A stretch of 64,000 nucleotides of DNA from Planctomycetota bacterium (GTDB lineage: Bacteria; Planctomycetota; UBA11346). Positions 41,721-62,272 of this stretch are shown one piece after another. The position numbers were made by a program. How positions within the stretch are numbered: position 1 is the stretch's first letter; every line of letters starts with the position of its first letter. The stretch covers positions 1 through 64,000 of the forward strand of contig JBBQSO010000006.1 in NCBI GenBank assembly GCA_038213805.1. Reading direction: 5' to 3'.

Positions 41721-44700
41721 TCATGTCTGGGCGCGCGTCGTCAGGGCGCATGGACCATCCCGCACACGCGCGTGGCGGCGCGACGCGCGTCCTCGGCAGC
41801 GCGGTGCGGGCGCGCGCAGGCGGCTGCCGCGACGACGCATCGTCGATGGCCCCCTTGCGTGTTGAACGTGGCTAAGGGTATGGTTGCCGACTCCGCGATC
41901 CGACGCCGGAAGCGGAGCCACGTTCCGTCGCGTGCAGCCAGGCCGTCCTCCGGGAGGGCCAACCCTGTACGCGACCCGCTCTTTGGCCGCCCCAGGTGGA
42001 GATTCATCTCAAGTCGGGACGGCGCCGTGCCGTTCATGACTCGCTTCCTCTCCGCAGGGATTCCCTGCACCCGCATTTGCTCCGGAGCTTGTCCATGCGC
42101 CTCAACGCCTCTCCCGCCGTGACCGCGACCGCCTGGACCATCGGGGCCGCCCTCCGGCGAGCGCAGGACACCCTGAGGTCGGGAGCGCGCTGGGCGCTAG
42201 GGTTGCTGCTGTGCGTCGCGACGACCTTCGCCGCCGCGGCCACCGCGCCTACCGTCGTCATCACCTGCCCGGCAGTCACCGCCGCCTCGACCAACCTCTC
42301 AGTCGTCACCTTCACCGCCACCTTCAGCCAGGCGGTCTCGGGCTTCGACGTCAGCGGCATCACCACCGTCAACGCCGCGGCCGGCGCCTTCACCGTGGTC
42401 AACGCCACCGTCTACACCTTCTCGATGACCCCGGCGGCCGAGGGCGTGTTCAGCGCCAAGGTCAACGCCGGCGCCTGCACCGCCACCGCGGCGGGCGCCA
42501 CCCCCAACCTCGCCTCGGTGGTGTTCGCCAAGACCTACGATGTCACCGCGCCGACCACCACCATCACCTCGACCGCGCCGTCGCTGACCAACACCACCAT
42601 CCCCATCAAGATCACCTTCAATGAGGCGGTCGCCGGGTTCACGCTCACCGACATCACCGTCAGCGGCGGCACGGTCGCCAGCTTCGCCGGCAGCGGCGCG
42701 ACCTACACCGCGATCGTCACCGCCAGCGGCGACGGCAGCGTGACCGTCGATGTGGCGGGCGGCGCCTGCACCGACATCGCCGGCAACGCCAACGTCGTCG
42801 CGACCCAGCTGGTGCGCACCTTCGACCACACCGCGCCGACCGCCACCATCACCACCACCGCAGCGAGCCCGGTCAACGCCGCGTATCCGGTGACCGTGAC
42901 GTTCAGTGAGGCGGTGACCGCTTTCATCGCCACGAACATGACCGTGACCGGCGGGACGATCGCGAGCTTCGCCGGCAGCGGCTCGACCTACACCTTCACC
43001 GTCAACCCGACGCTGCAGGGCAACGTCACCGTCGCCCTGACGGCGAGCAAGACCAAGGATCTGGCCGGCAACTTCAACAGCGCCGCCACCAGCCTGGTCG
43101 TGGTCTTCGACTCGGTGCGCCCGACCGCCGCGTTCACCTCGACGGTGTCGACCGCCACCACCAACCTCGCCACCATCCCGATGACCCTGACCTTCTCGGA
43201 GGTGGTCACCGGCTTTGACATCTCGCAGATCGCGGTCACCAACGGCGCCACCAGCAACGCCGCGGGCAGCGGTCGCACCTACACCTTCGACCTGGCGCCG
43301 ACCGCCGAGGGCGCGGTGACGGTGAACTACGCCATCGGCCAGGTCGCCGATGCGGCCAACAACACCAATACCGCCTCCGCCGCGTTCACCAGGACCTACG
43401 ACACCACTGCGCCGACGATCTCGATCACCAGCACCGCGCCGACCCTGACCAACGCGGTCATCCCGATCAAGATCACCTTCAGCGAGGCGGTCACCGGCTT
43501 CACCCTTGGCGACATCACCGTCGGCAACGGCACGGCCTCGGCGCTGCTCGGCAGCGGCGCGAGCTATACCGCCAACGTCACCGCCACCACCGACGGGCAG
43601 GTCACCGTCGACGTGGCCGACGCGGTGTGCACCGACATCGCCGGTAACGCCGATATCGCCGCCTCGCAGTTCAGCGTGGCCTTCGACAAGACCTCGCCGA
43701 TCGCCACCATCGCCACCACCACGCCGACCCCGTCGAACGTGCCCTTCGCGGTGACCGTGTCCTTCGACGAGGCGGTCACCGGCTTCGTCGCCAGCGACAT
43801 GAGCGTGACCAACGGCGCGATCTCGGGCTTCGCGGGCAGCGGCGCCAGCTACAGCATGGTCATCACCCCCGCCACGCAGGGCAACGTCACCATCACGATG
43901 ACTGCGGCCAAGTGCCTCGACCTGGCGGGCAACAGCAACCTCGCCGCCACCGCGCTGGCCGTGGTCTTTGATACCGTGAAACCGACCGTGGTCTTCACCT
44001 CCACGATCAGCGCCGCCAGCACCAACCTGTCGACCATCCCGGTGACCGCCACCTTCTCGGAGGTGGTGACCGGCTTCAGCGACAGCCAGCTCACCCTGGT
44101 CAACGGCTCAACCGCCAATCTCGCCGGCAGCGGCCGCACCTACACCTTCGACCTCAACCCCGGCGTCGAGGGCACGGTCACCGTCGCGCTGCCTGCGGGC
44201 CAGGCGACCGATGCGGCCGGCAACACCAACAGTCTGTCCACCACCTTCAGCAAGGCCTACGACCTGACCGCGCCGACCGTGACGGTGACCGGCACCGGTC
44301 CGGCCGTGACCAACACCACCATCCCCATCCGCATCGTCTTCAACGAGGCGGTGAGCGGCTTCACCGTCGGCGACCTGACCGTGGTCGGCGGCACCGCCGG
44401 CTCGTTCGCGGGTTCGGGCGCCACCTACACCGCGGTCATCACTGCGACCAGCGACGGCACCGTCACCGTGGATATCGACGCCGCGGTGTGCACCGACATC
44501 GCCGGCAACGCCCTGGCCGCGGGCACCGCGCAGTTCAGCGCGGTGTTCGACCATACCGCGCCGACCGCGACCATCGCCTCGACTTCGACCAGCCCGACCA
44601 GCGCCGCGTTCCCCGTGACCATCGTCTTCAGCGAGCCGGTGACGGCCTTCGTCGTCGCCAACGTCACCGTCACCAACGGCACCATCTCGGGCTTCTCGGG

Positions 44701-59700: not shown

Positions 59701-62272
59701 CCGGAGGAGTCGCTGGTGCCGCTGCAGCGCGCGATCACTATCCGCGAGAACCAGCAGGCGCCGTACGGCGTCGCCTACAACAACTACGGCAACGCCCTCA
59801 TCCAGCTCGGCAAGGCCAAGGAGGCGCTGCCCTTCCTCGAGAAGGCTGTGCTCTACCGCCCGAAGCTGGCCGAGGCGTGGTACAACCTCGGCAATTCCCA
59901 CGTCGCCTTCGGCGACTTCGCGAAGGCGCTGCCCGCGTACCAGCAGGCCGTGCAGATCAACCCGGACTACGCCGAGGCCCACCACAATCTCGCGCTGATG
60001 CTCGGCAACGCGCGCCGCTACCGCGAAGCTTACGAGCAGGACCGGAAAGCGCTCGAGCTGCGCCCGGTGTACGAGCAGGCCCAGCACACCATCCAGCGCT
60101 GGGAGCTCGCCCTCAAGCAGGGCGACGCAGCTGCGCCCGCGGTGACCCTGCCGTCGGCGCCTGCCGCGCCTGCCGCGCCGAGCGGAGCGCCGGCCCAGAA
60201 CGGGTTGGCGACCGCGGGGAAGTGACGCGCTGCAGCGAAGGCGCCAGGGAGGTTGTCCTTCACGTCTGGCGCTGGATAAGGGCGCCGAGCATGCGGCCGA
60301 TCTGGGAGATCTCGTCCTGGAGATGCAGTGCCGACGGAGTCGGGCAGAGTCCGATGTCGCATGCGAGGATGAGGTGGCAGCGCAGCTCGCCTGCGGACGC
60401 CTTGGCGATGCGCAGGAAGTAGGCGTACTCGTTACGATTATCGCGTTCCGCGCCCTCGGCGATATTGGCCGCGATGCTGATGGCAGCACGCTGGATCTGA
60501 TCGCGGAACGGGAAGTCGGTGGCGATACGCGTCGTCCGGACGAACCGGTACGTATCCGCCGCGAGTTTCCTGGCCCGCTGCCACACGATGAGATTTTCGA
60601 ATTTCGAAGTCGTCTGCATGGAAACCTCCTTGGGTTCCCACCCCACCACCAGGTCGCGCGCAGGGGTCAAGGACGGCGCGTCCCGCGCCGCCGCGCCCCG
60701 TGGGCGAGGCGCAGCCGGAGCTCCTTGACGCCGAGCACGACCGGTACAATCGATGGAACCGAGGAGATGGGCAACTCCCGGAGCGCGCGCCTCGCGCCTC
60801 GCGCCTATTCCACCGTGAAGACCTCATACGCCCCGACCTTGACCTCAAGCATCCTGCCCGCGCACTTCACCTTGCTTTCGGGATTGAGCGCACGCCACGG
60901 CTTGCCCTCATCCGTGCGCCACAGCCAGCGTCCATCGTAGAGCGCGACTTCCAGCGCGGCGCCATCGGGCAGGCCGGGCAGCACCAGGTCGGCGCCGAAG
61001 CCGCCGATCGTGAGGCGGCGCAGCACCAGGGCATAGGCCATGCCTGCGCGGTTGTCGGGGCGCGTCACCACCAGCGCGTCGCAGGCGTGGTCGTGGTCGA
61101 GGCCGCAGCCGGGGCCGCCCTCGCCGCTGCCGGCATCCGGGGCGTTGGTGAGCTGGCGCAGGGCGATGCCTGGACCGCGCGCGGTGGCGCGCACGCGCAG
61201 GGCCAGCGCGCCGGCGACGTCGAGCTGGTGTTCGCGGCCGGGATGCAGCACCACGGGGGCGCTGGGATTGATCGCCTCGCCGTCGCAGAAGGTGCCGTTG
61301 CCGCTGCCCAGGTCCGCGACCAGCACCTGGCGCGAGACCGTGTCGTATTGCAGGCGCAGGTGCTGGCGGCTGACCTTCAGGCAGGCGTTGCGGTACATCG
61401 CCACCGGGTAGACGCGCAGGCACAGGTCGACGGGCGGCTCGACCAGCTTGCCCATCACCACGAAGCGCTTGGCGTAGAGCACGATGGCCAGGCCCTCGCC
61501 GGTGAGGGTCAGCCACGGCGCCTGCAGGGCCTGCGCGAAATCGCCCTCGAAGGCAGTGCTCGCGCGCGCGCCGGGCGCGGTCTTCGGCTTGGCCGGGGGC
61601 GGCGGTGGCGCGGCGCTCGCGACGGTGGCGTCGAGGCCGCCGCTCCACTTTCCCGCGTCGACCTGCTCGGTCGCCGGCGGTGCGGCCGGCGCCCACTGCG
61701 CCGGGTCGAGGGTGATGGTGGCGTCACTGGCCGCGGCCTGGGCGCGCTCCCGCAGCTGCGCCCCGACCGCGCTGCCCGCCGCGCGCGCGCCGACCAGGCC
61801 GGTGCCCTGCGTCGATGCGAGGTGGTCGGTGGTCGGGCGCCCCATCTGGGTGCCCATGCCGCTGTCGAGGTGGGCCATGGTCTCGGCCAGGGCGGTGCGC
61901 AGCTGCTGCGGATCGCGGTAGCGGTCGTCGCGCTCCTTGGCCATGCAGCCGTTGACGATCTCGGCGAGGTGGTGCGAGACCTCGGGGCGCAGCGTGCGCG
62001 GATCCGGCACCGGCGCGCTGCGGTGCGCGTGCAGCACCTCCTGCAGCGTGCCGCGGTAGGGATCGGTGCCGACCAGGCAGTAGTAGAGCACCGCACCGAG
62101 CGCGTAGATGTCGCAGCGGATGTCCAGGTCGGGAGCGGCGATGACCTGCTCGGGCGACATGTAGTACGGGCTGCCGACCAGCGCGCCCTGCATGGTGAGC
62201 ATGGTGCGCAGCTCGGCGGTCGAGCGCGCGATGCCGAAGTCGGCGAGGCGCGCGTAGCCGTCCGGGCTGACA

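Follow-up and report, generated by a model that had tools for sequence, protein, structure and literature searches.

The 64,000 nucleotides of planctomycete DNA analyzed here (GenBank assembly GCA_038213805.1, contig JBBQSO010000006.1; G000:C6:1-64000 in our numbering, hereafter the window) carry three adjacent genes, which encode (i) a giant protein built of immunoglobulin (Ig)-like repeats; (ii) a membrane protein with a Wzy_C domain; and (iii) a TMTC-like membrane protein that joins a GT-C glycosyltransferase domain to tetratricopeptide repeats (TPRs). An earlier note, made from the sequence, had proposed that the three form a dedicated protein-glycosylation system. We confirmed that all three genes are real; the three-gene version of the system found no support, whereas a two-gene version, the TMTC-like enzyme and the giant, is partly supported, as this pair recurs in a second genome, G022. 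The host is an uncultured soil or sediment planctomycete, and its assembly (G000, 5.5 Mb) is 90% complete. An assembly artefact is excluded for the junction between the giant and Wzy_C genes, because it is spanned, in two other studies, by relatives' contigs that are about 90% identical and because an 89% identical giant of 4748 residues (P0119) has the same ends as that of the window. Another Planctomycetota record contains the TMTC-like gene at 95% identity.

The giant gene (42095–55486, forward strand) encodes 4463 residues and is the longest protein-like open reading frame (ORF) in G000. A Pfam search identified 46 Big_12 (PF19078) stretches, exactly the number of Ig domains counted in the earlier note, and these repeats account for 99% of the protein's length. 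They follow an A/B/C triplet pattern, with 63–65% identity within a class and 41–46% between classes. Big_12 was the sole Pfam family consistent with the repeats, no NCBIfam model matched, and a literature search on Big_12/PF19078 found nothing relevant. The first codons (42095–42247, forward strand) specify a predicted export signal with a long n-region and the hydrophobic stretch WALGLLLCVATTFAAAA, which forms a signal-like segment at about residues 33–50; a similar segment is present in the giant of G022 and in P0119, and we infer that the giant is exported by the Sec pathway. At its other end the protein runs flush to domain 46 and then closes with MPNGNG, without the Gly-Cys-Gly motif, membrane helix and basic tail that 18 other G000 proteins carry. 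Such a tail is found on 14 of the 24 other Big_12 ORFs in the family set (48 genomes, identical to the whole class set, to which a class-level search added none). The description of the giant as anchorless is thus accurate: its N-terminus is signal-like, and it has neither a C-terminal anchor nor a Gly-Cys tail. Searches of Pfam and NCBIfam revealed neither a ligand-binding tip nor a secretion or anchoring domain; because there is no tip domain, the term adhesin is not established for this protein, and a long stalk or matrix rod seems the safer description. N-glycosylation by a PglB-type enzyme was considered and rejected, as the giant contains 68 NxS/T sites and no D/E-x-N-x-S/T sequon. Elsewhere, near-pure Big_12 arrays are found in P0121, P0129 and P0146: one of these belongs to Bdellovibrionota, and the other two are eukaryotic gene models that carry the label Mesvir1.

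The TMTC-like gene (58000–60225, forward strand) is present in a single copy in G000, as determined by searching the genome with a profile of 109 sequences. Its reading frame is open from 57958, and the first ATG, GTG or TTG is the GTG at 58204, from which 673 residues would be translated. We consider it likely that the gene starts instead at the ATT at 58000 (741 residues), because translation from 58204 would truncate the first membrane helix, because a Shine-Dalgarno-like AAGGAG precedes this in-frame ATT (57988–58002, forward strand; 174 bp from the divergent Wzy_C start), and because of the pattern of differences in relatives' contigs: frame-breaking indels lie upstream of 57985–58007 and an in-frame 15-nt deletion lies downstream, with no change inside this segment among the differences listed (40 of 75). 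The same residues are kept in P0002. The alternative is the loss of an ATG, which the relative G010 has 29 codons further on.

The structure model of the enzyme (pLDDT 93) has a GT-C domain at residues 4–431 that matches yeast Pmt2 (6p2r_B; Z 20.1, rmsd 4.2, 338 residues aligned), followed by AglB, Pmt4, PglB, ALG12 and ArnT; no TMTC or TMEM260 structure is among the GT-C matches listed. Foldseek with the full model returned TPR proteins only, and sequence searches of the PDB returned TPR matches or none. The C-terminal TPR array is above the Pfam cut-off (TPR_1 at E 2e-33, and others). A DD motif lies in the first extracytoplasmic loop (58258–58263, forward strand), where it corresponds to motif M1 as defined in PMC7801869 (articles are cited here by PubMed Central or bioRxiv identifier); in model numbering it is D37/D38, conserved in 96% and 95% of 109 sequences, respectively. 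The GT-C fold, DD motif and TPRs of the earlier note are therefore corroborated by the model, the structure search, the alignment and Pfam. However, the TMTC_DUF1736 domain (PF08409) gave no match in the enzyme at E 0.1; a PF08409 search of the genome was also negative, but no control matched either. The link to this family is transitive only, through a homologue (P0111, E 1.4e-9 to the query) that passes the PF08409 cut-off; a eukaryotic cluster with 25% PF08409 scores 0.93. Judged by its sequence, the enzyme is TMTC-like in architecture and falls outside the TMTC family in the strict sense.

This assignment is refined by the residues predicted to line the pocket. In animal TMTC proteins, motif M2 reads SHKSYRP, with the HKSY residues modelled at mannose, and acidic residues of M3 and M4 are modelled near the sugar and metal (PMC7801869). 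The window enzyme has FSSGRRF at M2, retaining the Arg alone, and carries clade-specific motifs at M3 and M4 (58591–58740, forward strand; from the alignment): R-x-H in place of R-x-E/D (here R-A-H) and D-x-K-A-Q in place of K-E (here K-A-Q). The Arg and Lys are thus retained, and the acidic residues are replaced across the clade. At M3 the clade has His or Gln, whereas Glu is found in 137 of the 141 other homologues; at M4 the KE of 99 of these 141 becomes D-x-K-[A/L/P]-[Q/H], so that the Lys of the clade is preceded, two residues earlier, by a newly conserved Asp and followed by a His or Gln. DW becomes DY at M5 and ERxxY becomes EHRMY at M7, where, matched by eye with no animal sequence aligned, the Asp, Glu, Arg and Tyr are present with different spacing.

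Full-length TMTC homologues exist in many poorly characterised prokaryotes (PMC7801869). The TMTC-like family comprises 54,394 clusters at 50% identity, and at E 1e-35 we detected the enzyme in 44 of 401 genomes sampled across the phylum; a scan of a genome collection with the single enzyme protein returned 3 loci only. It is present in four of the 48 family genomes (G000, G010, G022 and G049), and these four sequences form one clade (support 0.994 with 147 sequences and 0.999 with 177). Within G000, the remark that both transferase families are common applies to Wzy_C, with nine matches, and does not apply to the TMTC-like family, with one copy. No study on the acceptor of any bacterial TMTC-like enzyme was found in a literature search whose coverage left out most subscription journals.

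In G000 the enzyme lies two genes from the giant. In G022, which belongs to another genus (its enolase is 86% identical), an enzyme of 41% identity lies directly upstream of, and co-oriented with, the orthologue of the giant (G022:C83). This orthologue is the giant's best match in the family (54% identity over 380 residues) and has the same A/B/C triplets, with at least 12 domains before the contig ends; the next family matches, at 43–49%, are mostly tailed proteins. Orthologues of the giant occur in two of the 48 family genomes, G000 and G022, both of which have the enzyme, and in none of the 44 that lack it. Co-occurrence of the three genes, which the earlier note had put forward as a check, is thus seen for the enzyme and the giant in these two genomes, whereas the Wzy_C gene is absent from the G022 locus. 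Gene order differs between the two loci. By chance, a single gene would lie no more than two genes away from any of the 16 large Thr/Ser-rich ORFs (out of 3662 ORFs) in about 2% of cases (calculated post hoc). A further record, L087, was dropped as a third independent lineage, as it is the same organism as G022 (99.99% identical).

We consider the best reading of these data, with a probability of roughly 45%, to be that the TMTC-like gene and the giant gene constitute a two-gene accessory module, in which a periplasm-facing O-glycosyltransferase acts on the Ig rod. The enzyme would reside in the inner membrane with its active site facing the periplasm, where it would meet the Sec-exported giant as it emerges; its TPRs would bind the Ig repeats, and a single sugar would be transferred from a polyprenyl-phosphate donor onto Thr/Ser of the Ig domains in O-linkage. 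The GT-C fold, the DD motif, the TPRs, the single copy and the adjacency of orthologues in two genera are what this reading builds on, and its topology, donor, acceptor and activity are inferred. Animal TMTC1-4 modify Ser/Thr on beta-strands of Ig-like (cadherin) domains (PMC11292533). A lipid-linked donor would be in keeping with the neighbours of related enzymes. A donor scan that covered 126 of 154 neighbour ORFs from 54 related-enzyme loci found a GT2 gene within two genes of the enzyme at 10 of the 54; two of these 11 GT2 ORFs are fused to GtrA/DPMS domains. Such neighbours fit the idea that the wider subfamily uses a lipid-phosphate-sugar donor. G000 itself has 20 GT2 matches, several of which resemble the GT2 proteins of those loci at 26–35% identity.

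A number of observations weigh against this reading. The giant consists of 19.8% Thr and 8.7% Ser, and the earlier note took this extreme richness as evidence of glycosylation. The combined fraction is 0.286, however, and among the Big_12 ORFs of family genomes that lack the enzyme 7 of 18 reach or pass this value (range 0.22–0.33), as do 30 of the 118 distant giants (median 0.26). The content is thus normal for Big_12, and we rejected it as support. Thr alone is high in comparison with the distant giants, only 4 of 118 reaching 0.198; yet Big_12 sequences of G014, a genome that is 94% complete and lacks the enzyme, have approximately the same Thr fraction as the window giant (0.194–0.197). 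No donor synthase is adjacent to the enzyme, none of the GT2 matches of G000 is found close to it, and the match with the highest score is part of an arn-like cluster, together with ArnA/ArnD/ArnT-like genes (assigned by reading the sequences). With the M2 motif absent and the acidic residues of M3 and M4 changed as well, the proposal that the sugar is mannose is not upheld. The linkage, moreover, is seen in only two independent lineages. G010 and G049 (68% and 61% complete) carry the enzyme at contig ends and have no assembled giant. Among 76 metagenome loci of related enzymes (33–42% identity), many of them short, 75 lack a Big_12 neighbour, L087 being the sole exception. Of the 401 phylum genomes, nine have Big_12 triplet matches, and G000 is the only one with both genes, few candidates having been scored per genome. 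In the window the two genes are not co-transcribed, and about 20 other large secreted proteins of G000 are possible acceptors. Adjacency alone is also ordinary. In a control comparison with 606 kb of G022 (40 stretches, our own crude gene caller; 88 neighbour pairs with clear orthologues, 19 contig-edge pairs set aside), 54 of 69 neighbour pairs kept their order and 15 were broken; adjacency is thus the rule between these two genomes, and the co-occurrence of enzyme and giant follows from it. A complex prediction for the enzyme with a Big_12 triplet scored 0.00, and, as its controls did not fold either, it carries no weight in either direction. Enolase and kinase neighbourhoods differ among members of the genus, so the flanks give no insertion boundaries.

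Several of these points are what would be expected if the two genes had merely been acquired or inherited side by side, the enzyme being a general periplasmic glycosyltransferase (for example, of surface proteins with the Gly-Cys tail) and the giant one acceptor of many, or none. This account, which we regard as somewhat unlikely, draws on the general retention of neighbours between G000 and G022, the mixed neighbours of a family of more than 54,000 clusters, the lack of a phylum-wide association between enzyme and Big_12, and the availability of other acceptors, 18 of 19 pattern matches in G000 being genuine Gly-Cys-Gly-tail proteins. The enzyme is not required for tailed Big_12 proteins, however, because 44 of the 48 family genomes lack it and many of these have such proteins. 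Moreover, the giant orthologue occurs only alongside the enzyme, and their proximity outlasted a change of gene order; neighbour pairs that stay near each other in altered order numbered 0 of 69 in the control and 1 of 43 in a rougher run. Alternatively, the TMTC-like protein could be linked to the giant as a chaperone that acts through its TPRs or as a tether in the membrane, or could modify a lipid or polysaccharide rather than a protein. The change of two acidic pocket residues in all clade members would suit such a role, as would the structural matches to ArnT and ALG12, modifiers of lipids or glycans that fit the fold almost as well. Still, the DD motif, the M2 Arg, the M4 Lys, the M5 Asp and the E-H-R-x-Y motif are all kept; because these core residues persist and a new conserved Asp and His/Gln have been gained, the changes look like remodelling and not decay, and we judge a non-glycosylating partner to be improbable.

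The remaining question is the part played by the Wzy_C gene (55462–57825, reverse strand; 787 residues), which is convergent with the giant gene and, as the earlier note had it, overlaps its 3' end, by 25 nt (55462–55486; bridged in relatives' contigs). The protein matches PF04932 (E 3e-11; 43.7 bits with a cut-off of 31.7), has a predicted WaaL-like fold with a helical C-terminal extension, and contains a His (His392) that is invariant in 16 sequences; its best structure match is WaaL (7tpg_B; probability 1.00, TM 0.57 by target), but with an E value of 0.011. Wzy_C was the only domain found in Pfam at E 0.01, and there was no NCBIfam match; PglL-type extra domains (PglL_A and Wzy_C_2) were not found. 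At eight loci (G000:C4, G004, G024, G010, G021, G003, G001:C838 and G022:C191), a long-form relative comes immediately after a type IV pilin-like gene; the context is cut off at four further pieces. The window gene is a paralogue of these pilin-linked O-oligosaccharyltransferase-like genes. No pilin adjoins it, and in an unrooted tree of 16 sequences it is split, together with P0240, P0241 and G001:C83, from all pilin-linked copies (bootstrap 100); these four share a two-helix insertion.

If Wzy_C were a second enzyme of the system, it would have the giant as its acceptor too, and would either attach an oligosaccharide to this anchorless protein or fix it to a glycan of the envelope. Since its branch is split from all pilin-linked copies, it may indeed have changed acceptor, and the giant lacks the tail present on so many other family Big_12 ORFs. 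Furthermore, the trio is kept together in relatives at 82–95% identity (P0003 and P0243 each on a 430,561-bp contig), and the Wzy_C and TMTC-like genes share a 174-bp divergent intergenic region; because of these two facts, it may be that one lineage recruited Wzy_C at a later stage, although the pair does not depend on it. However, no Wzy_C gene is present on the G022:C83 contig, and in G022 the clade copy whose surroundings are known comes after a pilin. Around G001:C83, the other copy without a pilin, there is no giant or TMTC-like gene either, and neither partner gene was seen anywhere in G001 (70% complete). None of the 76 metagenome loci, many of which are short, has a match to the Wzy_C protein; G000 has nine Wzy_C matches; and the giant ends in Gly, not in the C-terminal Ser/Thr used by TfpO/TfpM (PMC9829042). 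The three-gene proposal is consequently not supported and appears quite improbable to us; the Wzy_C gene probably landed between the pair separately, with another acceptor, and is probably an unrelated neighbour. The pilin-linked paralogues merit separate mention: G000:C4:218-3577 and seven loci in relatives form a conserved pair of a pilin and a 750-residue Wzy_C protein, likely a pilin glycosylation module. The seven linked pilin ends that could be seen are Arg, Lys or Gln and not Ser/Thr as in TfpO/TfpM substrates (PMC9829042); the acceptor site would therefore be internal.

Among known systems, animal TMTC1-4 (GT105) and TMEM260 (GT117), the O-mannosyltransferases of cadherin and IPT domains, resemble the window enzyme in having an N-terminal GT-C domain with DD in the first outer loop and C-terminal TPRs, and the candidate acceptor resembles theirs in consisting of Ig-like beta-sandwich repeats (PMC11292533, PMC7801869). 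The window enzyme differs in that it has no DUF1736 match, the SHKSYRP motif is reduced to its Arg, and RxD and KE are changed; its candidate acceptor is Big_12, not cadherin, and its activity is predicted. It is one of the prokaryotic TMTC-like GT-C/TPR proteins (PMC7801869), distinguished by its single copy, remodelled M3 and M4, and, in two genera, a neighbouring gene for an orthologous protein made only of Ig domains. In HMW1C/HMW1 adhesin modules, too, a glycosyltransferase gene is kept beside that of one large surface protein (PMC3012730, PMC3983070), and in group IV Pseudomonas aeruginosa a membrane transferase, TfpW, is encoded with one dedicated surface acceptor, which in that case is a pilin (bioRxiv 10.1101/2020.04.19.049825). 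The window enzyme differs from those of the adhesin modules in being a membrane GT-C protein predicted to face the periplasm and to use a lipid-linked donor. Aah/TibC and the GtfA/B of serine-rich repeat proteins are further dedicated adhesin glycosylation modules; their enzymes, like HMW1C, are cytoplasmic and use nucleotide sugars. The Wzy_C protein shares its domain and conserved His, and perhaps a WaaL-like fold, with TfpO, TfpM, PglL, PglS and WaaL, and its paralogues, like TfpO/TfpM, are encoded directly downstream of type IV pilin-like genes; it is longer (787 residues compared with 420–600), has an extra helical C-terminal domain, and has no pilin upstream (PMC9829042). The Kuenenia S-layer is an example, from this phylum, of a heavily O-glycosylated surface protein (PMC5088730).

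What is new here is a single-copy enzyme with a remodelled pocket and an Ig-only acceptor candidate, as an orthologous pair in a second genus. The locus provides an unusually clean test pair, with one enzyme copy per genome and a 287-residue triplet that can be expressed. If the giant is the substrate, a very large family gains a substrate and a link to cadherin O-mannosylation; if it is not, such adjacencies are shown to be weak guides. More speculatively, and in our estimate doubtful, a bacterial TMTC clade would glycosylate beta-strand Thr in the folded-type Ig repeats of a single dedicated giant, with a remodelled pocket and a non-mannose donor, so that fold-directed O-glycosylation of Ig-like domains would predate animals; the Wzy_C paralogue would perhaps have joined later, in one lineage, as a means of tethering the rod.

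Two more giant Thr/Ser-rich ORFs of G000, C45:1598-13576 (3993 residues) and C36:1-8322 (at least 2774 residues), are alternative acceptors. The sorting tail, a Gly-rich linker followed by Gly-Cys-Gly-x-Gly, a membrane helix and basic residues, terminates about 20 secreted proteins per genome (for example, window 1467–5126 and C16:48699-51767) and occurs in many family genomes; four tailed proteins that were scanned had no NCBIfam match to it, and it resembles MYXO-CTERM. Upstream of the giant, a divergent enolase gene (40059–41360) has a different setting from that in five members of the genus, where enolase comes after a PHP-domain-like gene, in most cases accompanied by a kinase and an RNase III-like gene; the region is therefore rearranged in G000. 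Downstream, a four-helix-bundle gene (60263–60619, reverse strand; PF05635) separates the TMTC-like gene from a Ser/Thr kinase-FHA gene, and in G005 a similar gene is found after the kinase. The kinase gene belongs to a divergent Ser/Thr kinase pair, one of them with FHA (60805–63998), which is conserved in five genus members (L214–L218) and flanked there by genes that read, by eye, like type VI secretion components. In one of these, a short unit repeated in translation, resembling a CRISPR-type array, lies downstream of the kinase gene (L218:8401-8952; G007:C27).

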